Shown here: positions 2,707 through 19,019 of the stretch, piece after piece
Layout: every line of letters begins with the position of its first letter
Position numbering within the stretch: the first letter of the stretch is position 1
Source: Thalassolituus oleivorans MIL-1
GTDB lineage: Bacteria > Pseudomonadota > Gammaproteobacteria > Pseudomonadales > Oceanobacteraceae
Reading direction: 5' to 3'
NCBI RefSeq assembly: GCF_000355675.1
Contig: NC_020888.1
Location: 1,730,883-1,754,882, forward strand
Length of the DNA stretch: 24,000 bases
Position numbers and translations under genes: made by a program
Notes under the pieces: model-generated
Seen by the model: the letters and a program-made list of their open reading frames with translations, nothing else
The model's database searches: none
Told to the model about the DNA's origin: nothing

Positions 2707-3072
2707 ATGAACAAGTCTATCAAATCAGTAAGTGCAATTTTGGGTACCGCTTTTATCGCTGCTATCGCTCAAGCACCTGCGGCCAGTGCTGCTGAGAACC
2801 CATTTGCTTCTGCTGAATTGCAGTCTGGCTACAAACTTGCGGCTCATCATGAAGAAGGTAAGTGTGGCGCCAAGTCTGAAGCTGAAGGCAAGTGTGGTGC
2901 TAAGTCTGAAGGCGAAGGCAAGTGCGGCGAAGGCAAATGTGGCGCGGAAAAGAAAGCTGCACACGAAGGCAAGTGCGGCGCCAAGTCTGAAGGCGAAGGC
3001 AAATGTGGCGCAGAAAAGAAAGCTGCCCATGAAGGTAAGTGTGGCGAAGGTAAGTGCGGCGCTAAGCAGTAA
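2707..3072 (+). CDS. hvfA: Secreted EGKCG-repeat RiPP precursor / metallophore protein (HvfA-like)
   Basis: AAGGAA Shine-Dalgarno about 7 nt upstream of the ATG. Sec signal peptide MNKSIKSVSAILGTAFIAAIAQAPAASA|AE. The mature part contains eight exact EGKCG motifs that hold all 8 Cys of the protein. The stop lies 2 nt before a DUF692 gene. Assignment rests on motif recognition plus gene context. Confidence 0.8.
   Translation: MNKSIKSVSAILGTAFIAAIAQAPAASAAENPFASAELQSGYKLAAHHEEGKCGAKSEAEGKCGAKSEGEGKCGEGKCGAEKKAAHEGKCGAKSEGEGKCGAEKKAAHEGKCGEGKCGAKQ
2854..3057 (+). repeat. In-frame tandem coding repeats: 8 x 15-nt EGKCG units with spacers AKSEA, AKSEG (x2), AEKKAAH (x2), or no spacer (x2)
   Basis: Read directly from the sequence. 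The units are gaa-ggY-aaR-tgY-ggY with differing synonymous codons. A larger block (AKSEGEGKCG..AEKKAAHEGKCG) is duplicated with a one-unit indel. Confidence 0.95.
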
Positions 3073-3074
3073 TT

Positions 3075-3947
3075 ATGGATAAGTCTGCGTTTAATCGTCA
3101 TGTTCAAGGTGCTGGGCTTGGGTTGAGAAGGGGGTTAATGGCTCCCTTGTCCGAGCATGAGCATTTGCCGGTTGATTTTATGGAGATTGCTCCAGAAAAT
3201 TGGATTGGGTTGGGTGGACGATTAGCGCATTCGTTAAGAAGTTATACCGAACGGTATGACTTCTTATGCCATGGTTTGTCGCTTTCTATTGGTAGTCCAG
3301 CGCCGTTAGACCTTAATTTTGTTCGTCAGGTAAAACGCTTTTTAGATGAGCATGGTGTTTTGGCTTACAGCGAGCATCTGAGTTACTGCGGTGATGAGGG
3401 GCATCTATACGATTTGCTTCCGATTCCATTTACTGATGACGCCGTAAACTATGTGGCTGATCGTATTAGTCAGGTGCAAGATATTCTTGGCCAGAGATTA
3501 ATTATCGAAAATGTGTCTGCTTATGCTGAGCCCGGTAAGGCGATGGAGGAAGCTGAGTTTGTGGCTGCTGTGCTTAATAAAGCGGACTGTGATTTGCTGT
3601 TGGATGTGAATAATGTTTACGTGAATAGTATTAATCATGGTTCTGATGCATTGGCATTTATCAAGGCGATGCCAACCGAGCGTATTCGATATTTACACGT
3701 TGCGGGGCATTTTGATGAAGCGCCGGATTTACTCATCGATACTCATGGCGATGCGGTAAAGGATATTGTCTGGGATCTATTAAAGCAGACGTATGAAATA
3801 CATGGCGTGTTACCGACCTTGCTTGAACGCGATTTTAACTTTCCTGCCGTTGAAGACTTATTTGCGGAGTTAGAGCAAATTCGCTCTCTGCAACACGATG
3901 TTGAGAATCAAGGGAAGTCTAGAACGAATGTCCTCCATACCGTTTAA
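3075..3947 (+). CDS. hvfB: Multinuclear non-heme iron oxidative enzyme (MNIO, DUF692 family; MbnB/HvfB/BufB-like)
   Basis: Typical DUF692 TIM-barrel motifs are present: GLGLRR, EIAPENW, HGLSLSIGS, SEHLSY, IENVSAY, LLDVNNVYVNS, HVAGH. The gene sits immediately downstream of the Cys-repeat precursor. Confidence 0.88.
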   Translation: MDKSAFNRHVQGAGLGLRRGLMAPLSEHEHLPVDFMEIAPENWIGLGGRLAHSLRSYTERYDFLCHGLSLSIGSPAPLDLNFVRQVKRFLDEHGVLAYSEHLSYCGDEGHLYDLLPIPFTDDAVNYVADRISQVQDILGQRLIIENVSAYAEPGKAMEEAEFVAAVLNKADCDLLLDVNNVYVNSINHGSDALAFIKAMPTERIRYLHVAGHFDEAPDLLIDTHGDAVKDIVWDLLKQTYEIHGVLPTLLERDFNFPAVEDLFAELEQIRSLQHDVENQGKSRTNVLHTV

Positions 3948-4707
3948 AAGTATTCAGTATCAATTTACGCGGTATATTCGTAGCCGTGGTGAGCAGCCAG
4001 TTGAAACGGAAATAGTTGGCGATATTGAACCGCGTCGGCTGAAAATTTATCGCGATTTATTCTTTAACAATGTCTGTGGATTTCTCGACTCTACCTTTCC
4101 TGTATGCGCAGAAATTCTTGGCGAGCAACGCTGGCGTGAGCTGAGTGAAGAATTTTTCTTAAAGCATGAATGCCACACCCCGTATTTTTTAAAGATCAGT
4201 GAAGAATTCCTACTCTTCTTGGCGCAAGAATATTCGCCGAAAGCTGATGATATACCCTACTTAAAGGAATTGGCTCACTATGAGTGGCTGGAATTGGCCG
4301 TTGATGTGGCTGAGGTAGAGCAGCCTAGGGATTTTGATCCCAATGCCGATTTAAGCAGCCATGTTCCCGTATTAGCTGCGGCGACCGAGGGGGCGTTTTA
4401 TCAATACCCTGTGCACAATGCCTCTGCCGCTAATTCCGCGTTACTGCCACAAGCCACTGCACTGATTGTTTATCGAGACCGACATGATACTGTCCGGTTT
4501 TTACATACGAATCCGTTTACTCTAGGCTTGTTAGTTATACTTCAAGACGAAGAACTAACCGGTCAAGATGCGGTTATTGCCCTGTTGAATCAGGCTGGTA
4601 TGGGATTGTCCGATACGGCTTTGCAGGGCGGTTTACAAATATTAGAACAGTGGCAGGAACAGGGTTTACTATTAGGTGCCAGAATAGATTCAAATAGTGA
4701 CGCTTAA
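3928..4707 (+). CDS. hvfC: DUF2063-family MNIO partner protein (MbnC/HvfC/BufC-like)
   Basis: The N-terminal pattern FQYQFTRYIR...YRDLFFNNV...FP is characteristic of DUF2063 DNA-binding-like partner proteins. It overlaps the end of the DUF692 gene, suggesting translational coupling. The start is ambiguous: ATG at 3898 (50-nt overlap) or ATG at 3928 (20-nt overlap). I chose 3928. Confidence 0.75.
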   Translation: MSSIPFKSIQYQFTRYIRSRGEQPVETEIVGDIEPRRLKIYRDLFFNNVCGFLDSTFPVCAEILGEQRWRELSEEFFLKHECHTPYFLKISEEFLLFLAQEYSPKADDIPYLKELAHYEWLELAVDVAEVEQPRDFDPNADLSSHVPVLAAATEGAFYQYPVHNASAANSALLPQATALIVYRDRHDTVRFLHTNPFTLGLLVILQDEELTGQDAVIALLNQAGMGLSDTALQGGLQILEQWQEQGLLLGARIDSNSDA

Positions 4708-5567: not shown

Positions 5568-6884
5568 TTATGGCTTGCCGCGAGTTGGCAATACATCTTT
5601 CAATTTAGCGCGCATAGTGCGAATAGCTTCTTCAGTTTCTTCCCAGCTAATACAGCCATCGGTTACTGATAGGCCGTATTCCAAATCACACAGATTGGCG
5701 GGGATATTCTGGCGACCGTGCTTGATGTTTGATTCAACCATTAAGCCAATAATAGATTTGTTGCCATCGAGTATTTGATTACTGACGTTGTCCATTACCA
5801 GTGGCTGCAATGCCGGATTCTTGTTTGAGTTTTCATGGCTGCAATCAACCATGATGTTTTTCATAAGATCCGATTTATCCAGCGCTTGCTCTGCTTGGGC
5901 AACATTCACTGAGTCATAGTTTGGTTTGCCGCCACCGCCGCGCAACACAACGTGACCGTATGGGTTGCCTTTAGTAGAGACAATCGACACGCTGCCAGCC
6001 TGATCAATACCCAGAAAACGATGAGGGTTAGCGACTGACATTAAGGCGTTGGTTGCCACTGTTAAGCTACCGTCAGTGCCGTTTTTGAATCCGACAGCCG
6101 ATGATAATCCAGAAGCCATTTCGCGATGAGTTTGCGATTCGGTAGTACGTGCGCCAATTGCTGACCAAGTAATTAAGTCTTGTAAGTACTGTGGCGAAAT
6201 AGGATCCAGCGCTTCAGTCGATAGAGGCAAGCCGAGTTCAGCTAAATCGATCAATAGCTTGCGCGAAATATGCAGGCCATCATGAATTTTGAACGTATCA
6301 TTCATGTATGGGTCGTTGATTAAACCTTTCCAGCCTACTGTCGTGCGTGGCTTTTCGAAGTAAACACGCATGATCAAGTATAAAGTGTCGCTTACTTCTT
6401 CTGCTAATTCACGCAGACGCATGGCGTAATCTTTTGCCGCTTCAACATCGTGAATTGAACAAGGCCCGATCACAACGAATATGCGGTGGTCTTTGCGATC
6501 AAGGATGTCACGGACGACTTGGCGGCCTTTGCATACACTCGCGATGGCAGCATCCGTAATAGGCATTTCTTTTTTTAGCTGATTTGGAGTAATCAGCGGG
6601 ACGATCGATTCAATATTGAGATCTTCTACGCGATTGTCGGTCATATCGGTTCCTGGCGCTTTTGGGCTGGTGAGGTCTGTATTTTGCTTCGCTGCGGTTG
6701 CTTGGTCCGCATTCGCACGTAATGTTCCGTTGGTTAATGCTTCAATCTGTTTCTGACGGCCAAGTGGAGGCTCATCCCCCCATTGGGATACGGCAGCGCT
6801 GGTTAGCTTCCAGCCGTCATCGGTACACGCTTTTGCGATGGCGCTTTTGGTTTTGAAGTATTGAACGACATCGTTTGTTTTCAT
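5568..6884 (-). CDS. Class I-alpha 3-deoxy-D-arabino-heptulosonate-7-phosphate (DAHP) synthase with an in-frame 80-aa N-terminal Cro/YdaS-like extension
   Basis: Residues 81-438 (MTDNRVEDLNIESIVPLITPNQL...) align end to end with AroF/G/H-type enzymes. Motifs seen: VVIGPCSIHD, KPRTTVGWKGLINDP, IGARTTESQTHRE. The longest ORF adds 80 codons without a stop. The internal ATG at 6642-6644 has its own AGGAA Shine-Dalgarno. The isozyme cannot be assigned. Confidence 0.9.
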   Translation of the reverse strand: MKTNDVVQYFKTKSAIAKACTDDGWKLTSAAVSQWGDEPPLGRQKQIEALTNGTLRANADQATAAKQNTDLTSPKAPGTDMTDNRVEDLNIESIVPLITPNQLKKEMPITDAAIASVCKGRQVVRDILDRKDHRIFVVIGPCSIHDVEAAKDYAMRLRELAEEVSDTLYLIMRVYFEKPRTTVGWKGLINDPYMNDTFKIHDGLHISRKLLIDLAELGLPLSTEALDPISPQYLQDLITWSAIGARTTESQTHREMASGLSSAVGFKNGTDGSLTVATNALMSVANPHRFLGIDQAGSVSIVSTKGNPYGHVVLRGGGGKPNYDSVNVAQAEQALDKSDLMKNIMVDCSHENSNKNPALQPLVMDNVSNQILDGNKSIIGLMVESNIKHGRQNIPANLCDLEYGLSVTDGCISWEETEEAIRTMRAKLKDVLPTRGKP

Positions 6885-11023: not shown

Positions 11024-12310
11024 TTAAATAGGTGTCGCTAGAATCTTTCCTATTTTATTTAATATTTCTTGATACTCGTCGTCCATGGTTGAATCGACAA
11101 CGATTCCTCCGCCTCCCCAGCAGACAGCGCCATCTTTGGTCGCCGTAATCGTCCGAATAAGAATATTGAAGTCGGTTAAACCGCTATCATCAAAGTATCC
11201 CATTGATCCGCAATAGGCCCCACGGTTTTGTAGCTCAAGCTCCTCGATGATCTGCATTGCTCGAACTTTGGGCGCGCCTGTAATAGAGCCCCCCGGAAAT
11301 GCATTTCTTACAACATCGATGGGGGTAAGGCTCGCTTTCTGTTTTGCAGTAATGGTACTGACCATATGGTGCACATTGGCATGTGACTCCAGCGCAAATA
11401 GTTTTTCAACCTTCACGCTGTGCGGCTCCGCAGATCTACTTAAATCGTTTCTTAACAAATCTACAATCATCAAGTTCTCTGCTTGATTTTTTTCGCTGGC
11501 GAGAAGCTGATTGCGATTTGCTTCGTCACATTTAGGGTCTGGATGGCGAGGGCTAGTACCTTTTATTGGGCTGGTAGTAATGATGCCATTTTCTACCTTA
11601 ACGAATCGTTCTGGAGATACTGTTGCAATCCAGTAGCGATCGTTTTTGAAAAAACCGGAAAAAGGAGCGTCGAATGCCTCTAATAAGGGGAGGGGATTGG
11701 TATCTGTTAGATCGTCGCCGCAAAAGAAAGGCATAGCCAAGTTAACTTGATAGCAATCGCCAGCAAGCAGGTAGTCTTGAACTCGCTCGAATGCTGTTTG
11801 GTATTGACGCTTAGTCCAGCCCGGAGTCCATTTTCTTGCGTTTATTGCAGTTTTTTGTGGCTCGATCTCTCGAAGTTGGCTTAGTTCTTTTTTACGCTCT
11901 TCAGTCAGTGGGTAGTGACTTAGCAGGAAGCATTCATCACTTTCAAAATCTAGGTATATAGATGCATCGTAGTAATTGAATAGCCCCTCGGGTTCACTGG
12001 CGTGTGATTGAGGGTAATGAATGATACCTGCCCAGCCAGAGATAAAGTGCTCTGGCTGCTCAAAGCGCGTACTAGTTTGCGTGTCTGGATAGACAGTAAG
12101 GCTGGAATAGTCAGTATCTTTAACAACCTTAAGGGACTTTAAGGGCTTGTGGCCCAAAATGGCGAATCTAGGGGGGTGGGAAGATTGGCCAACCGTCAGG
12201 GAAGTGTAATTTACACCACTAAGGCCATTGAGTAGTAAAATCGGATGCTCAAGAAAGCTTAAACAATTCAACAACTTAGCTGGTGTAAAGGGGAGTTTGT
12301 CGTGTGTCAT
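11024..12310 (-). CDS. pabB: Aminodeoxychorismate synthase component I (PabB; chorismate-binding enzyme family)
   Basis: Chorismate-binding C-terminal domain with SPERF, PIKGT (the Lys is typical of PabB; TrpE has Ala), GGSITGAPK and GAYCGSMGY motifs. The thrH-pabB adjacency matches Pseudomonas. Confidence 0.8.
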   Translation of the reverse strand: MTHDKLPFTPAKLLNCLSFLEHPILLLNGLSGVNYTSLTVGQSSHPPRFAILGHKPLKSLKVVKDTDYSSLTVYPDTQTSTRFEQPEHFISGWAGIIHYPQSHASEPEGLFNYYDASIYLDFESDECFLLSHYPLTEERKKELSQLREIEPQKTAINARKWTPGWTKRQYQTAFERVQDYLLAGDCYQVNLAMPFFCGDDLTDTNPLPLLEAFDAPFSGFFKNDRYWIATVSPERFVKVENGIITTSPIKGTSPRHPDPKCDEANRNQLLASEKNQAENLMIVDLLRNDLSRSAEPHSVKVEKLFALESHANVHHMVSTITAKQKASLTPIDVVRNAFPGGSITGAPKVRAMQIIEELELQNRGAYCGSMGYFDDSGLTDFNILIRTITATKDGAVCWGGGGIVVDSTMDDEYQEILNKIGKILATPI

Positions 12311-12634
12311 TTTATGCCAGAATCAAGGGTTGTGAATTGAGCTTAACTATTTGATTTTTAAGGATTTTATTTCACTGCTGGAGCGGTGATTCTAGCATTG
12401 TTTGAGCTCTTAGGGCTATGTTCCGTAATTTTTTGTAAAAAAGTGGTGGACAACACCAAAGCCACATAATAGATTGGTATCCAGCTTCTGAGGTAACTCG
12501 AAGCTAAGAATATTGAAACCCATTGATAAAGTCATTCGGTTTCCAGTGACTCACTGAAGAAGATCTGGCAGACTGATGATAGGTCGCCCACACAGCGGCC
12601 GACATAATAGAAAAACAATCAGGAGTGTGCACAA

Positions 12635-13438
12635 ATGAAATTTCTTAAAAAAGCTTCACTAGCAGTATCAATCGCTGCAGTATCTTTCGCTGCTAACGCT
12701 GAGTTGGTTGCTATGGATGAAGCGACTATGTCTGCTGCGACTGGTCAAGCTGGTATCGATTTGAACATTACATTGGAAGGCGCTAACGCTATTTCTATTG
12801 GTGAAATCCTTTACACTGATACTGATGTGGCTGATGGCGGTAGCTTGTCTCTAAGCACTGTTACTGTTGGTACTGACTCTGGTACTCTGACTATTGAAAA
12901 CGTGATCGATATTACTTCAGACGGTATCATGAATATTGCTACTAGCGCTGTTTCTGGTCTTAAGATTGGTGTTGGTTCGGTTGATTTGGTTAATGCTGCT
13001 GGCGCTAACTCTGGTAATCTGATCTCAGGCTTGAGCTTGTCAATGGATTTGGGTGTGTCAAACACTACTATCGGTAAAGGTACTTATGATGCAGCTGGTG
13101 TTTTCACTGCTGACACTAAGACCGTGATCGATTCTCAGTCTTCTTTCAAGATTACTGCCGGTTCTTTGTCTGCACTTGACGGTCAAGTTGGCGTGAGCGG
13201 TATCACTTTTGATAACGACGGCCAGAACGTGGAAGTTGATACCACTATGTGGGCTGACGCAAGCGGCTTCAACATCAAAGTTAACAGCATTGCTGGTGAC
13301 TTGACCCTAGGTGCAGTTACTCTAGGCGGCACAACTGACGCTACTACCGGCGTATTTACTGCAGGCCCATCAATTGGTTCTGTTGGTATCAGCAACATCC
13401 AAATGGCTGGTGCAACTATCACTGTATCTGGTCACTAA
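12635..13438 (+). CDS. Abundant secreted beta-strand-rich acidic protein of unknown family (candidate structural subunit or cargo of the downstream operon)
   Basis: AGGAG Shine-Dalgarno with a 9-nt spacer. Sec signal MKFLKKASLAVSIAAVSFAANA|EL. The mature part is G/T/S/A/V/I/D/N-rich with no Arg, no Cys and one Pro, and shows about 12 alternating amphipathic strand patterns. Codons are strongly biased toward T-ending forms (ggt, gct, act, tct, gtt), unlike neighbouring genes. Two terminators follow the gene. Confidence 0.8.
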   Translation: MKFLKKASLAVSIAAVSFAANAELVAMDEATMSAATGQAGIDLNITLEGANAISIGEILYTDTDVADGGSLSLSTVTVGTDSGTLTIENVIDITSDGIMNIATSAVSGLKIGVGSVDLVNAAGANSGNLISGLSLSMDLGVSNTTIGKGTYDAAGVFTADTKTVIDSQSSFKITAGSLSALDGQVGVSGITFDNDGQNVEVDTTMWADASGFNIKVNSIAGDLTLGAVTLGGTTDATTGVFTAGPSIGSVGISNIQMAGATITVSGH

Positions 13439-13456
13439 GATCATTTGCTGGTGAAA

Positions 13457-13485
13457 TAAAAAAACCCGCTTAGGCGGGTTTTTTT
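13457..13485 (+). terminator. Rho-independent terminator T1 after the secreted-protein gene
   Basis: aaaaaaaCCCGCttagGCGGGttttttt: a GC stem extended by A/T pairs, followed by a T-run. Confidence 0.85.
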
Positions 13486-13501
13486 ATGCCTAAAATAAGA
13501 C

Positions 13502-13528
13502 AAAAAAGTGCGCCGATGGCGCATTTTT
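13502..13528 (+). terminator. Second tandem rho-independent terminator T2
   Basis: aaaaaaGTGCGCCgatGGCGCATtttt: a 6-bp perfect stem plus a G-U closing pair and a T-run, 17 nt after T1. Confidence 0.75.
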
Positions 13529-13617
13529 GGTTGGTAGATAGTGTGATTTTATGTAACATGTAAGATGACTAAACAAAATTATAATAACAATACGGAGGGG
13601 CCTTTGGCCTACGTGTA

Positions 13618-14550
13618 GTGTTTGTCATTCTTCTAGGATCACTAATTGGGTTTGCTATGGTGCACGAGCTGGCCATCGTGAACGATCGTCAGCCCGGCGA
13701 TACCATCGTTCGTGTTGCGGTAAACGAAGATTATCAGCAAGATCAGGTAGTCAACGTGGAGCCACTCTCCGTTAAGCGTTTTAAAAACGTGGTACGTCAA
13801 GTCTATGATTATTCTTGTGGCTCTGCTGCATTAACAACCTTGTTGGATTACTACTTGGGTAGAAACTTCCAAGAGCGCCAAGTGATGGAAGGTTTGCTGC
13901 GCTTCGGCGAAACCGAGCGCATCGTTCAGCGTCGCGGTTTCTCACTGCTCGATATGAAGCGTTTGGTAACTGCGCTAGGACATCCATCTGGCGGGTTTAA
14001 GGCTGAAGAGGAGGATCTAATAGCTTTAGATCATCCTGCGATTGCGCCGATCCACTATGCAGGTTTCAAGCATTTCATTGTGATTCGTTCTGTATATGAA
14101 GGGCGCGTTTATGTGGCTGATCCAGCGTTGGGGAATATAAGTTTTACGTTGCCGAGATTTCTCGAAATTTGGGACAATAACGTTCTTTTTATAGTGTTTC
14201 CGAACGGCCACAAACCCGCAACCGGTCTAGAGTTGCACGAAGAAGATATGCGTTTTGTTTCTGATTATATTATTGCGGAAAATACTTTCCGTGAATTTCC
14301 TGAATTCCAAATTCGTAGCGAGCATACGATTAGCAATCAGATTTACGCGATGAAAGACAATGCTCAGACGAGCTTTGGACCTAAGTTAGATGCTGACGGT
14401 AAGGCAGTAAGAAATGAGGACGGAAATATCGTCTACGAGGTTCTCGTAGAAACGAAGGCTGATGGTGCCGATCCGGATGACTTCAATACATATGTTGCCA
14501 CTGATCGCTCAGATGTAATTGAGAAGCACCTTCGCTTCCGCAGAAAATAA
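13618..14550 (+). CDS. Peptidase C39-like cysteine protease (standalone, non-ABC) with N-terminal hydrophobic anchor or signal and a ~110-aa C-terminal extension
   Basis: C39 catalytic signature: YDYSCGSAALTTLLDYY (Cys), GFKHFIVIRSVYEGRVYVADPALG (His and Asp), followed by FLEIWDNNVLFIV. The GTG start at 13618 is the first start after an in-frame stop. It gives the hydrophobic N-terminus FVILLGSLIGFAMV. The GGAGGGG upstream is about 19 nt away, so the start is uncertain; the alternative is ATG at 13657. Confidence 0.75.
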   Translation: MFVILLGSLIGFAMVHELAIVNDRQPGDTIVRVAVNEDYQQDQVVNVEPLSVKRFKNVVRQVYDYSCGSAALTTLLDYYLGRNFQERQVMEGLLRFGETERIVQRRGFSLLDMKRLVTALGHPSGGFKAEEEDLIALDHPAIAPIHYAGFKHFIVIRSVYEGRVYVADPALGNISFTLPRFLEIWDNNVLFIVFPNGHKPATGLELHEEDMRFVSDYIIAENTFREFPEFQIRSEHTISNQIYAMKDNAQTSFGPKLDADGKAVRNEDGNIVYEVLVETKADGADPDDFNTYVATDRSDVIEKHLRFRRK

Positions 14551-14576
14551 TAACGATAAAGAATTAAGGAATTTCC

Positions 14577-15644
14577 ATGTTGATTCGTACCAAACTAATT
14601 TCGATCCCCTTATTGTTGGCATTTGCCAGTGCAGTTGTTGCTGATGAAGCAGCCGATATGGATAAGGCACGTGAAGCCCTCACCAAGCAGGATAACGACG
14701 CTGATACTGAAAAGGCACTTGAGCAGGTTTTCGAGGCAGCAGAAAAGAATTATTCGATGTTGAAACGTGGCGGCGTTTCCGTTAACTACAACTTTGATTA
14801 TAGCTACTACGGCGATCAGCGGATTGATTTAACAATCACTCCTAACGTGAATAGTGATGGCCAAGTAACTGGCGACTCTACGATTAGCAGTGCAAATGTG
14901 AGTCCTGTGGCCAGCCATACCATGACGAACTCGTTTTCATTGGATTATGGATTGATGGATAACGTGACAATTGGTGGTCGTTTACCGCTGATTGCGAAGT
15001 TTGAGACAGAAGATGAGCTTACTGCCTACGGCGTAGGTGATCTTTCAGGTACGGTTCGTTGGCAGCCATTTGAATATGTTCCAGGCAAAATTAGTCAGAC
15101 CTACTTTGCAACGTTACGCTTGCCTACAGGCGATAGCCCCTATGAAATAGATGAAACGAAAAGCTTGCCGACTGGTTCCGGTACTTGGGGTTTGAGTGGC
15201 GGGGTGAGTGCTTCTAAGGTTCTTGATCCAGTGGTTCTATTCGGCTCGTTAAGTTATGGCTACACGCTGCCATTAACCGATCTAAATCAACGCCGAGGTA
15301 GTTCGATTCTTCGTGAAGTGCATTCTGGCAGTAGCTTATCCTTTTCTATGGGCTTTGCTTATTCGTTGTCGTACGACGTATCTTTGAGCGCTTCATTCCA
15401 AGGGTCGTTTAACGATCAATCGCGTTTTGAATTATATGATACTGCTACGGGTTCAACTGTTAGCTCAGTATCAGGCAGTCAAATGAGCGGTATTATGAAC
15501 TTTGCTCTTGGTGTGCGGGTGTCTCCAAAAACAATTGCTAACGTAAACGTTGGTTTTGGTATGACAGAGTTGTCCCCGGATATTTTGCTTGGTTTGTCTC
15601 TACCGATTGATGTCGAGGGTATTAAACCTTCTGCTGGTAACTAA
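14577..15644 (+). CDS. Outer-membrane beta-barrel protein with an N-terminal acidic helical segment (possibly the MetA-pathway 'transporter' barrel family)
   Basis: AAGGAA Shine-Dalgarno. Signal peptide MLIRTKLISIPLLLAFASAVVA|DE. About 40 aa of charged helical sequence follow (DMDKAREALTKQDNDADTEKALEQVFEAAEKNY). The rest shows alternating beta-strand patterns with G/S/Y-rich turns and a GVGDLSGTVRW motif. Family assignment is tentative. Confidence 0.6.
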   Translation: MLIRTKLISIPLLLAFASAVVADEAADMDKAREALTKQDNDADTEKALEQVFEAAEKNYSMLKRGGVSVNYNFDYSYYGDQRIDLTITPNVNSDGQVTGDSTISSANVSPVASHTMTNSFSLDYGLMDNVTIGGRLPLIAKFETEDELTAYGVGDLSGTVRWQPFEYVPGKISQTYFATLRLPTGDSPYEIDETKSLPTGSGTWGLSGGVSASKVLDPVVLFGSLSYGYTLPLTDLNQRRGSSILREVHSGSSLSFSMGFAYSLSYDVSLSASFQGSFNDQSRFELYDTATGSTVSSVSGSQMSGIMNFALGVRVSPKTIANVNVGFGMTELSPDILLGLSLPIDVEGIKPSAGN

Positions 15645-15650
15645 CCAGTC

Positions 15651-17336
15651 ATGGCTAATAAAACTATAAAAATGACAAGGTTATGGCGACACAATATGCG
15701 AATTTTACTGTTGGTGGCATTGTTAGTACCGAGTCTTGCAAAAGCAGAACTCGTACAGAACCTGTTTATTGATACCAAGGCAATGTCGTTGGGTAACGCA
15801 GTGACTGCTGATCCAACTGGTATCATGGATATTCACTTCAACCCCGCCGGTTTGACGAAGCTGGAAGGGCGTCAGGTTCAGGTTCAGTTACAGGGTGTTA
15901 TGTTGCGTTCTGAGGCTTCTTTTGCGCTGCCTAAAGGATATGACGATACCGAATCTGGGCTTTTGCCTATACATGAAGACCCAGTTTTGAATGAAGGCAA
16001 TAGCCATGCTGATGTGGCTATTTATATCCCCGGATATGGTTTGGTTGGCGTTCCTTTACCTGTGTTGGCGTTGCCTTCGGCCGGTATATCTATTAATCCA
16101 CCGGGCTCTAAATTCACATTTGCGAACGCTGTTTATGCGCCAATGGCTGCCGGCTTTTCAAAGGGTGATGATGATCCAGGGCGCTATCAGGCTAAAACGA
16201 TTGCACTTCAGCGCTTAACTTATTTGTCTCCATCATTTGGTTACAAGGTGACTGATGAGTTTTCTGTGGGCGCAGGTCTGCTGTTTTCGCATCAGGCGGT
16301 TGCACTTGAGCAAGATATTCGCGCACCTAACATTCTGGTCGGCGTGCTTGAGGAGCTTCAAGATGCGTTTGGGTGTTTTGATGCTGAGACGGGTGAGCCT
16401 ACCGGTAACGATCCGCTGGCGCCTTTATTGACGCTATGTGGCGGTAATGTTGGTCCATTTGATGATGTCGGTACTTTGAAGATTAACACTACTGAGAGTC
16501 TGTCACCCTCATTTAACCTTGGTTTGTTGTGGGAGCCGAATGGCTGGTTTAAGTTTGGCGTAGGCTATCAAAGTGAAGCAACGAGCCAATTGAAAGGCGA
16601 TTATGACTTGGAATATACCGATGAATTTGCGGATTTCTTCCGTAATTTTAGGTCGTCTATTATTGGTGCTATTGGTGGGGCGATATTCTCATTGCCTACG
16701 GGTAATAAGCGAGAGCGAGGTTTTGTTACTACCGAACTGACATATCCTCAGCATTTTCAGGCCGGTGTGGCATTCCAGTATTTTGATGTTTTCCATCTGA
16801 ATTTGGATTTAGGTTGGACCGACTACGATAAGTGGGATGAGCTGTATTTTGAGTTTGACCGCGATGTGAGCTTTTTATCGACAGCGAGAACCTTGTCTCC
16901 TGATTTGGTGACATCCTCTACTCTGACGATGCCGCTAAACTTTAAGAGTGTGTGGAATTATAAAGTGGGTGCATCTTGGGATCTTAACTCACGTATTCAG
17001 CTACGTGCAGGTTTGGAGCCTCGTAAGAGTTCTATTCCAGACGACTCTCGTAGTCTGCAGGCTCCTATTGGCTTTGCACGGTTGTACGGCGTTGGTTTAG
17101 GTTACCAGTGGGACTTGGATACTGTTGTAGACTTGTCTTTGAGCTTTATGAAGTCAGTTCAGCATATCCGTGCTGATCCACAAAATGCTGAGAATTTTGA
17201 TGACTATCCTAATTCAAGTAATTCACTTAACCGGAACTGTTTAACATGTGTTGTGACCAACCCGTATCCAGGTCTGGATATCGACACCAAGCTAACCATT
17301 GGCGCCGCTGGTATCAGTTTCCGCACCAAGTTCTAA
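15651..17336 (+). CDS. FadL/OMPP1/TodX-family outer-membrane transport protein, unusually long (561 aa)
   Basis: Signal peptide (MRILLLVALLVPSLAKA|E) followed by the family's N-terminal hatch motif AMSLGNAVTADPTGIMDIHFNPAGL. A C-terminal aromatic residue (..ISFRTKF) marks a beta-barrel OMP. The start could be 15651, 15672 or 15696; none has a good Shine-Dalgarno. Confidence 0.75.
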   Translation: MANKTIKMTRLWRHNMRILLLVALLVPSLAKAELVQNLFIDTKAMSLGNAVTADPTGIMDIHFNPAGLTKLEGRQVQVQLQGVMLRSEASFALPKGYDDTESGLLPIHEDPVLNEGNSHADVAIYIPGYGLVGVPLPVLALPSAGISINPPGSKFTFANAVYAPMAAGFSKGDDDPGRYQAKTIALQRLTYLSPSFGYKVTDEFSVGAGLLFSHQAVALEQDIRAPNILVGVLEELQDAFGCFDAETGEPTGNDPLAPLLTLCGGNVGPFDDVGTLKINTTESLSPSFNLGLLWEPNGWFKFGVGYQSEATSQLKGDYDLEYTDEFADFFRNFRSSIIGAIGGAIFSLPTGNKRERGFVTTELTYPQHFQAGVAFQYFDVFHLNLDLGWTDYDKWDELYFEFDRDVSFLSTARTLSPDLVTSSTLTMPLNFKSVWNYKVGASWDLNSRIQLRAGLEPRKSSIPDDSRSLQAPIGFARLYGVGLGYQWDLDTVVDLSLSFMKSVQHIRADPQNAENFDDYPNSSNSLNRNCLTCVVTNPYPGLDIDTKLTIGAAGISFRTKF

Positions 17337-18169
17337 TAGTATTAGCTATTATTTGCTCATCTTCGGCATATGCCGAAGATGAGTATTACACTTGGATTGA
17401 TGCAGAAGGTCGCATCCATAATAGTGTTGTTCCTAAAGATACCTCAGCTGACAAATCTAGCGCGAAGAAAGATATGCCTGCGCCGGTTGTAGGTGGAGAT
17501 ATTCCAAAGTTGCCCGGCGACGATACTCAGTATTTATCGGAAGACGAGCTCAAAATTCAGCAAAAACAAGATTTAGAAGATAAGCCACCTTTTTATATTT
17601 GGATTGATGAGGCTGGTATTGTTCATACGGAGATGCGTCCCGAAGGTCTGGAAGACGAAGAGGAGGCGGCCCAGAGCGTTACCGAGAGTCATGATCATAT
17701 ATTTGCCCCACCATTTCGTTTAGATGAAAAGGTACAGGATGGCGCCTGCTGCAATATGTATGAGCAAGCATTTATTGATGCCCTGACACCCTTTAAATCT
17801 CGCATGTATCCTGATCCTGATTTGCTTATGCCGTTTGCATTGAAGCAAGGAGATCGTCCTGCTTGGTATGTGCGAATAGGTAAGGCGGGAAAGAAAACTT
17901 CCGGTCAGCGTTTTGTGGTTTTGCGTGTTCGAGGTGAGCCGGTAGAGGCGTCAATTATTGCTTTAAATAGTGATTTGAAGCCCCTTTATTTTGACAATAA
18001 ATTGGGTCTGCATGAGTATCCAGAGAATTGGCACAGTGTTGCTTATCAGGAGACTCGTATTTTGCTTGAGGATGCTGATGTGGCGGCCATGATTATTTAC
18101 CTCGAGGGCGCCACAACAAAAACCATGTCTTTAGAAGTTAAGTGGGCCGATGGAACATCACCCGATTAA
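17246..18169 (+). CDS. Periplasmic protein with two DUF4124-like motifs and an uncharacterised C-terminal domain
   Basis: Predicted signal ..HWRRWYQFPHQVLIVLAIICSSSAYA|ED. Twin motifs YYTWIDAEGRIHNSVVP and FYIWIDEAGIVHTEMRP match the Y.W.D..G..H pattern of DUF4124. The only canonical start in frame is ATG 17246, giving a 91-nt overlap with the upstream gene. Confidence 0.6.
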   Translation: MCCDQPVSRSGYRHQANHWRRWYQFPHQVLIVLAIICSSSAYAEDEYYTWIDAEGRIHNSVVPKDTSADKSSAKKDMPAPVVGGDIPKLPGDDTQYLSEDELKIQQKQDLEDKPPFYIWIDEAGIVHTEMRPEGLEDEEEAAQSVTESHDHIFAPPFRLDEKVQDGACCNMYEQAFIDALTPFKSRMYPDPDLLMPFALKQGDRPAWYVRIGKAGKKTSGQRFVVLRVRGEPVEASIIALNSDLKPLYFDNKLGLHEYPENWHSVAYQETRILLEDADVAAMIIYLEGATTKTMSLEVKWADGTSPD

Positions 18170-19019
18170 TATCCGCACGGCGGTAGCGGATACTCATGCC
18201 GCGTTATTGCAGTACCCGCACGAATCGAAAAAACATCGGCGTCTAGTTCTATTGCATGGTGCTGGCGTTGCCGGTGAGCTTACCTGGACCTTTATCGCCA
18301 ATTACTTGAGTGAGTGGGACGAGGTCTTAATTCCTGATTTGCCCGGTATGGGTGCTAGTAAATTTATAGGGCATAAGCCTTGGCCCGTAGTCGCCGATTA
18401 CGTGGAAGCAATTCGAGAGTTGTTAGTTGCTCTGGATTGGGATTGTTTTGATATTGCCGGGTATAGTTTTGGCGGCTTGGTGACGGCTGACTTGCTGGGT
18501 GATTTTACTATTGGGCATTGTTTTTTAATCGAGCCGGCGATGCTCTTTTCGGGTGATGCTGTTGAGCTACGGCAGCGTGGCGAGGAGTATATTCGCGTCG
18601 CGGAGCATATTGCTGAAGCGCCGGATGACAGTGTTCCTTTTTTTGAATTTCTAGATTTGGTATCACCTCACCGTTTAAAGCGCGGTCGCGCGGACGAAAT
18701 TACAGTGCAGCGCTTGATGGGCGAGTCGCAGGGTTTTGCTCAGGCGTTGCATGCTGTTAGTGATGCTTTGTTGCGTGGTGCTGGTATTTTTACCCGTTGG
18801 ATGCCTAAGGTTTCTGGCGCAAGCTTTGTTGGTGAGTTGAGCTATGCCTCCATGCATGGTCGTCATCGTTTGTTAGCCGAAAATGCGAATGACTGGACGT
18901 ACTACGCAGTCCCCAATGCTGATCACAGCTTGGTGTTTATGAAGCCGCGCTGGATTGCACGGCATATGAATGAGAGAGCTAGCTCTGAAGGCGGCGTTGC
19001 AGACCAGCCAGCGCCATAA
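18150..19019 (+). CDS. Alpha/beta-fold hydrolase (last gene of the operon)
   Basis: Oxyanion-hole region [11 protein letters not shown], nucleophile elbow GYSFGG and C-terminal His (NADHSLVF). It overlaps the upstream gene by 20 nt, suggesting translational coupling. Confidence 0.75.

Follow-up and report, generated by a model that had tools for sequence, protein, structure and literature searches.

What do the C39-family cysteine peptidases FapD and FilB cut? The question has been open since 2017, and it is raised by a stretch of 24,000 nucleotides from Thalassolituus oleivorans MIL-1 (contig NC_020888.1, positions 1,730,883 to 1,754,882; hereafter the window, in whose numbering coordinates are given unless another locus is named), in which a gene for an exported protein, gene A (12635-13438, + strand, 267 amino acids), stands before a gene for a FapD-like peptidase. 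Its product is identical in sequence to TOL_1622 (UniProt M5DRK8) in the supplement of PMC6304351, and the sequences of TOL_1623, TOL_1624 and TOL_1625 in the supplementary table of that study are those of the next three open reading frames (ORFs). Gene A is a new, divergent member of the Fil/DUF6160 family, which has a name but is uncharacterised. Its product is probably a precursor from which the main subunit of a Fil-type (DUF6160) surface filament is made, by the pathway of maturation and export proposed below. The leaders found on DUF6160 proteins and on the proteins at the FapE position of Fap-like loci offer a concrete, testable answer to the question of what FapD and FilB cut. The genes of the cluster are as follows.

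12635-13438 (+): gene A / TOL_1622, putative DUF6160 / FilA-like filament subunit precursor, 267 amino acids
13618-14550 (+): filB / TOL_1623, FapD-like C39 cysteine peptidase with a hydrophobic N-terminal anchor (predicted); NCBIfam FilB 4e-79, FapD 4.4e-32; Pfam Peptidase_C39 1e-16
14577-15644 (+): filC / TOL_1624, outer-membrane protein with a FapF-like C-terminal barrel; NCBIfam FilC 4.5e-92, FapF 2.5e-20
15651-17336 (+): filD / TOL_1625, OmpP1/FadL/TodX-family outer-membrane protein; NCBIfam FilD 5e-147, Pfam Toluene_X 4.5e-60
17246-18169 (+): filE-like / TOL_1626, secreted protein; Pfam DUF4124 7e-5, weak FilE match 0.0028
18150-19019 (+): abh / TOL_1627, alpha/beta-hydrolase, Pfam Abhydrolase_6; 20-nucleotide overlap with the filE-like stop

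The Pfam model DUF6160 (PF19657) matches residues 1-89 of the gene A product at 73.6 bits (E 1.6e-20), above its gathering threshold of 27, and is present in 120 of 120 homologues among the matches listed. The NCBIfam model FilA (NF050077) aligns end to end (residues 2-267 against model positions 1-279) at 53.5 bits (E 2.4e-14), below its cut-off of 220; since Acinetobacter baumannii FilA scores 332.9 bits, gene A is homologous to FilA but lies beyond the reach of this narrow, Acinetobacter-based model. When 1.84 billion representative proteins were searched with a family profile, 729 representatives of the family came up at E<=1e-3. About 30 Oceanospirillaceae genomes have kept the order thrH-pabB(-)-A-filB-C-D-E-abh-ppsR(-); in these the machinery genes are 62-78% identical and gene A just 28-50%. 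The Fil gene order (subunit, filB C39 peptidase, filC, filD and a weakly matching filE) is thus found at the TOL_1622 locus. The filE-like gene, whose ORF overlaps the end of filD, keeps its position in all loci. A sixth gene filF is absent from the TOL_1622 locus and from every Oceanospirillaceae locus reaching that far; an alpha/beta-hydrolase gene stands there instead and closes the cluster in all 26 Oceanospirillaceae loci that extend to it. FilF has reportedly been proposed as a vaccine antigen. The literature searched mentions DUF6160 in a single unrelated paper, in passing, and nowhere describes the leader or connects it with a C39 peptidase.

The pre-sequence and the FilB peptidase

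The product of gene A divides into three predicted segments (the arrow, here and below, marks a cleavage site or segment boundary).

12635-12700 (+): predicted Sec signal peptide MKFLKKASLAVSIAAVSFAANA (residues 1-22), as judged by its n/h/c regions and the A-x-A rule; predicted signal peptidase I site ANA↓EL
12701-12748 (+): predicted propeptide ELVAMDEATMSAATGQ of 16 residues (23-38), a leader of double-glycine type whose P1 residue is Gln
12749-13435 (+): predicted mature subunit, residues 39-267 (AGIDLNI...TVSGH), 22.5 kDa, pI 4.05, all-beta

The segment behind the signal peptidase I site, ANA↓ELVAMDEATMSAATGQAG (also written ANA↓ELVAMDEATMSAATGQAGIDL), had been read in an earlier look at the bare sequence (the original prediction) as a double-glycine-like motif with a C39 gene next door, and its TGQAG element had been singled out for an alignment check among homologues. 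Both observations hold: E-[LM] comes after A-x-A in the logo of 201 distinct leaders, TGQ[AS]G hardly varies within the family, and the active site of the neighbouring FilB is intact. With positions counted from a cut after the invariant Gln (Gln38 in gene A), the 201 distinct pre-sequences show the following pattern.

-19 to -17: A-x-A (signal peptidase I site)
-16: Glu 70%
-15, -12 and -7: LIVMF 98% each
-11 and -10: Asp/Glu 86% and 98%
-4: LIVMF 44%, else mostly Thr/Ala
-3: Thr 95%
-2: Gly 98%
-1: Gln 99%
+1: Ala 87%, Ser 10%
+2: Gly 100%
+3: Val/Ile/Leu (LIVMF 99%)

Double-glycine leaders for C39 peptidases are defined by hydrophobic residues at -4, -7, -12 and -15 together with Gly at -2. 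The leader of the gene A family has this register when counted from Gln38, and departs from the usual C39 substrate in two ways: position -1 is occupied by Gln (99%) rather than by Gly, Ala or Ser, and the leader is located behind a Sec signal peptide and next to a stand-alone FilB, rather than at the N-terminus of a substrate processed by a C39 domain of an ABC transporter. No ABC transporter was found in the fil cluster.

Over 110 homologues less than 60% identical to gene A overall, the mean identity to gene A is 0.86 in the signal peptide (residues 1-22), 0.76 in the leader (23-38) and 0.35 in the mature part (39-267). Synonymous divergence is equal inside and outside the pre-sequence (codon identity at identical residues 0.50 vs 0.50), which shows that the constraint acts on the amino-acid sequence and rules out recent recombination as the source of the conserved pre-sequence. 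FilA stands alone in this respect, as none of the other fil-cluster proteins carries such a leader in the canonical register. Judged by sequence, the whole family carries a true double-glycine-type leader after its Sec signal peptide, and ELVAMDEATMSAATGQAGIDLNITLE is the predicted candidate substrate peptide of FilB. In the AlphaFold2 (AF2) model of gene A the leader has a low predicted local distance difference test score (pLDDT) and forms a short helix at residues 29-35.

The catalytic set of FilB is complete, with Gln61, Cys67, His152 and Asp168 aligning with the peptidase domain of PCAT1, and Pfam PF03412 matches it at 61.5 bits against a threshold of 22. The hydrophobic N-terminus of FilB ([VM]F[IV]ILLGSIIGFAM...) is kept in all of about 32 loci, seven of which lack the internal ATG that serves as the start of TOL_1623 in the MIL-1 annotation (MVHELAIV, 297 amino acids, 13 codons short). 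The 13 upstream codons, VFVILLGSLIGFA (window 13618-13657), are conserved as protein in these loci, even where the internal ATG is missing, so the true start of filB is GTG 13618. The extended protein carries what its sequence identifies as an N-terminal membrane anchor. The catalytic domain would be periplasmic, by analogy with FapD and because the substrate already bears a Sec signal. FapD, the nearest characterised relative of FilB, is periplasmic, and its active-site Cys is needed for secretion; its substrate was described as unknown, and FapF or FapE was suggested (PMC5557850).

A leader of the same type is found in Fap-like systems. Six Fap-like loci were taken from PLSDB matches of FilB, and in five of the six the FapD-like gene is directly followed by one for a Sec-signal protein that bears a double-glycine-type leader just behind the signal (L040 6587-7234, L042 4594-5103, L044 4576-5259, L045 4561-5277 and L046 4611-5177); the sixth (Indioceanicola) contains only a looser ...ELDRSVGR match.

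Photobacterium, FapE-position leader: LTDDEMSSLRGG↓F
Polymorphobacter, FapE-position leader: ITDYELATMRGG↓I
Croceicoccus, FapE-position leader: LSEEVLARQRGG↓I
Vibrio, FapE-position leader: LSNSSLEEYRGG↓F
Aeromonas, FapE (NF058559, E 2e-12) leader: LADGELAHLRGR↓Y
Thalassolituus, gene A leader for comparison: AMDEATMSAATGQ↓AG

The leader of gene A aligns residue for residue with these FapE-position leaders, with Gln in the place of the second Gly. The residue at -1 is Gly in four of the six Fap-like loci and Arg in Aeromonas FapE. Their pattern (...E[LM]xx[LM]RGG↓) makes the FapE-position proteins strong candidates for the substrate of FapD; if this is true, the RGG↓ logic would identify the long-sought FapD substrate in Fap amyloid systems.

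The junction between the periplasmic coiled coil and the barrel of FilC (window 14730-14780, residues about 52-68) contains a semi-conserved motif, ...EVFEAAEKNYSLLK[RKQ]G[GSNDV]. Its first Gly is invariant, A. baumannii included, the second position of ...NYSLLK[RKQ]G[GSNDV] varies freely, and the motif is out of the -4/-7/-12/-15 register. By analogy with the GG motifs in the FapF linker, this junction could be a second FilB site.

The subunit, the 9XFV filament and the predicted cut site

The gene A protein contains no Arg, no Cys and a single Pro, and has a pI of 4.05 and a net charge of -18 to -21, in agreement with the composition originally described. Its AF2 model (mean pLDDT 81.4, predicted template modelling score 0.74) is disordered or helical to residue 40 and all-beta from residue 41, where the pLDDT climbs from 58 to 91. 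The beta architecture that had been anticipated is thus reproduced, with 15 strands in place of about 12. The N- and C-terminal beta segments and a C-terminal [SY]GH are conserved in the family and flank a hypervariable middle, a layout that in our own comparison resembles that of other surface filament subunits. The two segments are also alike (xGSxxYTDTDxxGGSVxIxxIxL vs VGSIxxGxxxxxxGSVAIxNIxLxG, compared over residues of about 50-80 and 215-260 in gene A, and 2-44 and 126-166 in 9XFV), which suggests an internal duplication flanking the hypervariable middle.

The only solved structure matched by the family profile is 9XFV (chain A, E 2.2e-7), and the match is collinear at the N-terminus (...GSxxYTDTDxxGGSV...) and at the C-terminus. 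9XFV, or 'pilus-like-alpha', is a helical filament from karst-cave water that was solved by cryo-electron microscopy and whose sequence was read from the density map; it comprises 25 chains, with a helical rise of 11.70 Å and a helical twist of 283.86 degrees, and its authors did not connect it to DUF6160, Fil or a C39 peptidase (PMC12956863, PNAS 2026). The 9XFV filament can now be attached to a gene family and a biogenesis cluster. At 173 residues its chain is shorter than the predicted 229 of mature gene A, the middle is not alignable, and it contains an alpha-helical region that has no counterpart in the AF2 model of gene A. Membership in DUF6160, the likeness to FilA and the helical filament formed by a homologue together support the reading, made here by homology, that gene A encodes an exported, self-assembling structural subunit, as the original prediction had proposed.

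The chain of 9XFV begins X1-G2-V3-S4-I5, and a homologue with the same spacing places the final Gly of its TGQAG opposite G2, so that the mature subunit appears to keep the 'AG'. The start of the chain is then the equivalent of gene A residue 39, i.e. position +1 of the predicted cut. Together with the -4/-7/-12/-15 register, the Gly at -2 and the alignment with the ...RGG↓ leaders, this makes TGQ↓AG, after Gln38, the likely site of cleavage, rather than QAG↓. The original prediction had placed the C39 cut after QAG, which would follow a Sec cleavage and leave a mature N-terminus of IDLNI...; the small residues Ala-Gly do precede that bond and residue 41 is where confidence in the AF2 model sets in, but 9XFV retains the equivalents of Ala39-Gly40, and a cut at that bond would put the hydrophobic residues at -6/-9/-14/-17 and Ala at P2, out of register with both double-glycine and FapE-type RGG leaders. 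Cleavage after QAG is, on this evidence, very improbable.

Expression signals and growth on alkanes

The signals around gene A that bear on its expression are listed below (dG, folding free energy).

12447-12475 (+): promoter-like site TGGACA-17 nt-TAGATT with an A-tract just upstream, from a consensus scan
12582-12600 (+): candidate stem-loop GGTCGC-CCACACA-GCGGCC in the 5' untranslated region (5' UTR), about 20 nt upstream of the Shine-Dalgarno sequence
12621-12625 (+): Shine-Dalgarno sequence AGGAG, 9 nt before ATG 12635
13457-13485 (+): intrinsic terminator T1, AAAAAAACCCGC-TTAG-GCGGGTTTTTTT, CCCGC-TTAG-GCGGG followed by T7; dG -21.8 kcal/mol, z -4.24
13502-13528 (+): intrinsic terminator T2, AAAAAAGTGCGCC-GAT-GGCGCATTTTT, TGCGCC-GAT-GGCGCA followed by T5; dG -16.4 kcal/mol, z -3.30

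Amid otherwise variable intergenic DNA, 12 orthologous loci keep the GACA of the first promoter hexamer, TAGATT (TAAATT in one of them) and the A-tract; the predicted start of transcription is near 12482. A sigma-54 promoter upstream of gene A was rejected by eye, its spacing being 3 nt too long. The Shine-Dalgarno sequence had been noted originally and lies in a ribosome-binding block, AAAAAyAATCAGGAGTGTGCACA..ATG, that is near-invariant in 14 diverged orthologous loci; an 8-nt palindrome, TGTGCACA, occupies 12626-12633 between it and the ATG. The CAGGAG of this block resembles a CsrA/RsmA GGA site in sequence. The 12582-12600 stem-loop is a lead at the level of sequence: stems at the same position in orthologous loci are made of other sequences (GGGC/GCCC, CGGG/CCCG and GGTAG/CTACC, in an alignment read by eye), and RNAalifold predicted no pairs upstream of the Shine-Dalgarno sequence in an automatic alignment. 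A scan of the whole window with Rfam gave no match at gathering scores.

The share of T-ending codons among those for Gly, Ala, Thr, Val and Ser (TCN) is 0.68 in gene A; in the 20 remaining ORFs of the window it is 0.14-0.46. This comparison, made against neighbouring genes, bears out the claim of a codon preference unlike that of the flanking genes. Gene A also prefers AAC, ATC, TTC and GAA (effective number of codons, Nc, 40.6). The same shift relative to neighbours recurs in 30/30 orthologous loci with a mean difference of +0.29, which argues for sustained selection on translation.

Tandem terminators had been seen behind gene A, and both fold significantly better than their shuffled versions (0/200 shuffles fold as well as T1). 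T1 is the general element of the two: a hairpin and T-run of this type lies 14-66 nt past the subunit stop in 28/28 related loci, its stem is entirely different in L021 and L031 (compensatory stem replacement), and loci with two tandem subunit genes have a separate terminator for each. A small GGCC-N3-5-GGCC hairpin (13594-13609) lies between a GGAGG-like sequence and the filB GTG and is conserved from Thalassolituus to A. baumannii (L039 6968-6982). Its role may be to keep FilB output low, through control of translation or RNA processing.

The proteome of MIL-1 has been recorded by whole-cell shotgun analysis on n-C14, n-C28 and Tween (PMC6304351), with the following spectral counts for the cluster.

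TOL_1622 (gene A): n-C14 3.5, n-C28 14.9, Tween 0.8; not significant, P = 0.20
TOL_1623 (FilB): n-C14 0.3, n-C28 6.0, Tween 0; significant
TOL_1624 (FilC): n-C14 7.2, n-C28 15.7, Tween 3.6; significant
TOL_1625 (FilD): n-C14 0.3, n-C28 8.9, Tween 0; significant
TOL_1626 (FilE-like): n-C14 1.1, n-C28 1.6, Tween 0.5; not significant
TOL_1627 (hydrolase): n-C14 0.3, n-C28 1.1, Tween 0; not significant

All six proteins peak on solid n-C28, and the flanking TOL_1620, TOL_1628 and TOL_1629 are flat. The normalised spectral abundance factor (NSAF) of TOL_1622 is 0.120% on n-C28, 0.029% on n-C14 and 0.006% on Tween, against a mean NSAF of about 0.056%. The tryptic peptides of the mature protein are 72, 38, 14, 10, 43 and 52 residues long, so that two of the six are short enough for mass spectrometry; as extracellular fibres are also easily lost, the count of TOL_1622 is a lower bound, and the fibres may have been lost or may resist digestion. 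TOL_1625 was reported as a 'FadL homolog' that is up ninefold on n-C28 and was interpreted as an alkane transporter (PMC6304351). It is filD, the fourth gene of the six-gene fil cluster (12635-19019), and the transporter interpretation may need revision. The hydrolase TOL_1627, with low spectral counts that peak on n-C28, is a candidate member of the system.

The proposed pathway, related systems and other genes of the window

In the pathway that we consider probable for gene A, the subunit would be made at a high rate, thanks to its conserved sigma-70-like promoter, long 5' UTR, strong ribosome-binding region and translationally optimised codons, and T1, reinforced by T2, would end most transcripts before filBCDE, so that less machinery than subunit is made. 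The precursor would pass the inner membrane via Sec and be cut by signal peptidase I at ANA↓EL, leaving the 16-residue amphipathic propeptide as a double-glycine-type leader. FilB, held in the inner membrane by its anchor and facing the periplasm with its catalytic domain, would recognise this leader and cut after Gln38 (TGQ↓AG). The acidic all-beta subunit so freed would be exported via the FapF-like pore of FilC and polymerise on the cell surface, with FilD and FilE as a possible platform or anchor. The system would be on during growth on a solid long-chain alkane, where its probable role is attachment to the hydrophobic substrate. A wider proposal, that DUF6160 filaments in general consist of a Sec-exported subunit whose propeptide is cut by periplasmic FilB at Gly-Gln↓Ala-Gly to license FapF-type export, that the RGG↓ leader marks the FapD substrate, and that the product is a solid-alkane attachment fibre with TOL_1625 in its assembly, is put forward tentatively, as a possibility to be taken seriously. 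If true, the Gly-Gln↓Ala-Gly maturation would be a step not described before, the fibre would be an attachment organelle for solid alkanes in hydrocarbon degraders, and TOL_1625 would be part of the assembly machinery.

The leader might instead never be cut specifically and act as a targeting, chaperone-binding or anti-polymerisation signal, kept as a disordered tail or trimmed non-specifically, with FilB acting on another protein, e.g. FilC. FapF or FapE having been suggested as the target of FapD (PMC5557850), the semi-conserved FilC junction with its invariant first Gly would fit such a role, and the start of 9XFV could be its first ordered residue. The FilC motif, though, lacks the register and is free at its second position, whereas the register is complete in the FilA leader, which can be aligned with the RGG leaders of the FapE-position proteins, and the ordered chain of 9XFV begins exactly at the predicted +1; we regard an uncut leader as unlikely. 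A porin-like or alkane-binding beta-protein of the outer membrane or surface, monomeric or oligomeric, that works with TOL_1625 in the uptake of long-chain alkanes would agree with the induction of the cluster on n-C28, with the published interpretation of TOL_1625 as an alkane transporter (PMC6304351), with long amphipathic strands and with weak, non-significant Foldseek matches that include porins and beta-barrels. Such a protein is nevertheless highly unlikely, given that the family profile matches a solved helical filament, that FilA is the Fil fimbriae protein in Tol 5, that gene A is very acidic with a hypervariable middle and no C-terminal aromatic residue, and that the Foldseek matches have TM of about 0.1. 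The FapD-like peptidase and FapF-like pore would also suit a functional-amyloid subunit analogous to FapC or CsgA with Fap-like secretion, an idea that is hardly tenable: gene A has no Gln/Asn-rich imperfect repeats and no match to the FapB, FapC and FapE models, its AF2 model is a confident globular beta fold, and the homologous filament rises 11.7 Å per subunit vs 4.8 Å in cross-beta.

Several observations weigh against the proposed pathway or weaken the original prediction. FilB lacks a positive N-terminal region, so its orientation rests on the analogy with FapD. To our knowledge, the P1 specificity of C39 peptidases is for Gly, Ala or Ser, and we know of no case of Gln at P1. Foldseek found no match in the PDB, 9XFV included, for the AF2 model of gene A. 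The first residue of 9XFV could just mark the onset of density in a map from which the sequence was built, and a word-indexed search with 42 known 9XFV residues found no full-length parent (A0A257CJ09). Outside the window, T2 occurs only in the closest relative, L001, so that of the two terminators T1 stands as a family trait and the tandem arrangement as a lineage feature. The claim of a highly expressed, abundant protein stands for the conserved expression signals and not for the measured abundance, which is about 2.2 times the mean NSAF, on n-C28 only (detection being biased), with a change across conditions of P = 0.20; the count of TOL_1622 is about that of FilC, and a high ratio of subunit to machinery is not visible in the data of PMC6304351.

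Among known systems, the closest to the gene A cluster is Acinetobacter Fil (FilA-FilF, NF050077-NF050081, a 'putative pilus system'). Fil fimbriae are made by Acinetobacter sp. Tol 5 mainly on triacylglycerol, and FilA was identified as their protein by Edman degradation (PMC3498257); the N-terminal sequence of Tol 5 FilA was not found quoted in the literature searched. The A. baumannii locus, taken from a chromosome filed in PLSDB as a plasmid, reads pabB(-)-filA-filB-filC-filD-filE-filF, with FilA, FilB, FilC, FilE and FilF above the NCBIfam cut-offs. It shares with the gene A cluster the gene order, the pabB neighbour, a DUF6160 subunit with a signal peptide, a leader ending in TGQxG and a C-terminal SGH, a terminator-like hairpin with a T-run after filA and the GGCC...GGCC hairpin before the filB GTG. 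The pre-sequence of its FilA, MKMFTKLALVSSLAISANAMA↓MQSMDDAALSAATGQ↓DGINI (...ANAMA↓MQSMDDAALSAATGQ↓DGINI...ITISGH), has the same register. Unlike Acinetobacter Fil, all scores of the gene A cluster are below the curated NCBIfam cut-offs, BLASTP aligns gene A with A. baumannii FilA over the first 65 residues only (42% identity), filF is absent and an alpha/beta-hydrolase gene comes last, the FilE-like protein is shorter and without PTA repeats, and the host lives in the sea as an obligate hydrocarbon degrader.

Pseudomonas Fap resembles the fil cluster in its Sec-exported substrates, its C39 peptidase (FilB to FapD, E 4e-32) and its barrel, FilC residues 194-343 matching the FapF crystal structures 5O65/5O67 (E 6e-16), and Fap-like loci, like fil, have one Sec-exported protein per locus with a double-glycine-type leader behind the signal peptide. 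In Fap-like loci this leader is on the protein after the C39 gene (FapE in Aeromonas), in fil on the major subunit; the Fap subunit is built of amyloid repeats, that of fil is a folded acidic beta protein without Fap repeats; and fil has Gln rather than Gly at P1, no homologues of FapA, FapB or FapC, and additional FadL-family and DUF4124 proteins. The leaders of class II bacteriocins, lanthipeptides and NHLP peptides have Gly at -2, acidic residues at about -8 to -11 and the hydrophobic register of gene A. The C39 domains of PCAT/AMS ABC transporters (e.g. PCAT1 4RY2, LahT150 6MPZ) are homologous to FilB in fold with the same catalytic residues. These leaders, however, are N-terminal, have no Sec signal and are cleaved in the cytoplasm by a domain fused to the transporter, whereas the gene A system would combine a post-Sec leader, an anchored stand-alone peptidase, Gln at P1 and a structural cargo of 229 residues.

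Additional DUF6160 genes are present in some genomes. A second subunit gene stands in tandem between gene A and filB in L011, L013, L015, L018 and L032, each gene with its own terminator; an orphan paralogue with no C39 gene nearby is located elsewhere in T. oleivorans (P0245, leader ...NVSGQAG), and a Hahellaceae copy is likewise an orphan (coordinates listed for extra or orphan copies: L037 5443-6246 and L033 6243-7175). The tandem and orphan genes suggest that one machinery may serve several subunit types. On the other side of gene A, pabB (aminodeoxychorismate synthase component I, 11024-12310, - strand) adjoins the fil subunit gene on the opposite strand, as it does in A. baumannii (L039 4146-5534, - strand), although Oceanospirillaceae and Acinetobacter are assigned to different taxonomic orders.

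Elsewhere in the window, positions 2707-4707 hold a cluster resembling those that make ribosomally synthesised and post-translationally modified peptides (RiPPs), in which genes of the MbnB/TglH/ChrH (DUF692) and DUF2063/NGO1945_C families come after a small Sec-signal ORF (2707-3072) of nine EGKCG repeats; we take this layout to be that of the bufferin type of RiPP cluster. Further along, the class I 3-deoxy-D-arabino-heptulosonate 7-phosphate (DAHP) synthase encoded at 5571-6884 (- strand) is fused, unusually, to a P22 Cro-like DNA-binding domain at its N-terminus (E 5e-12).

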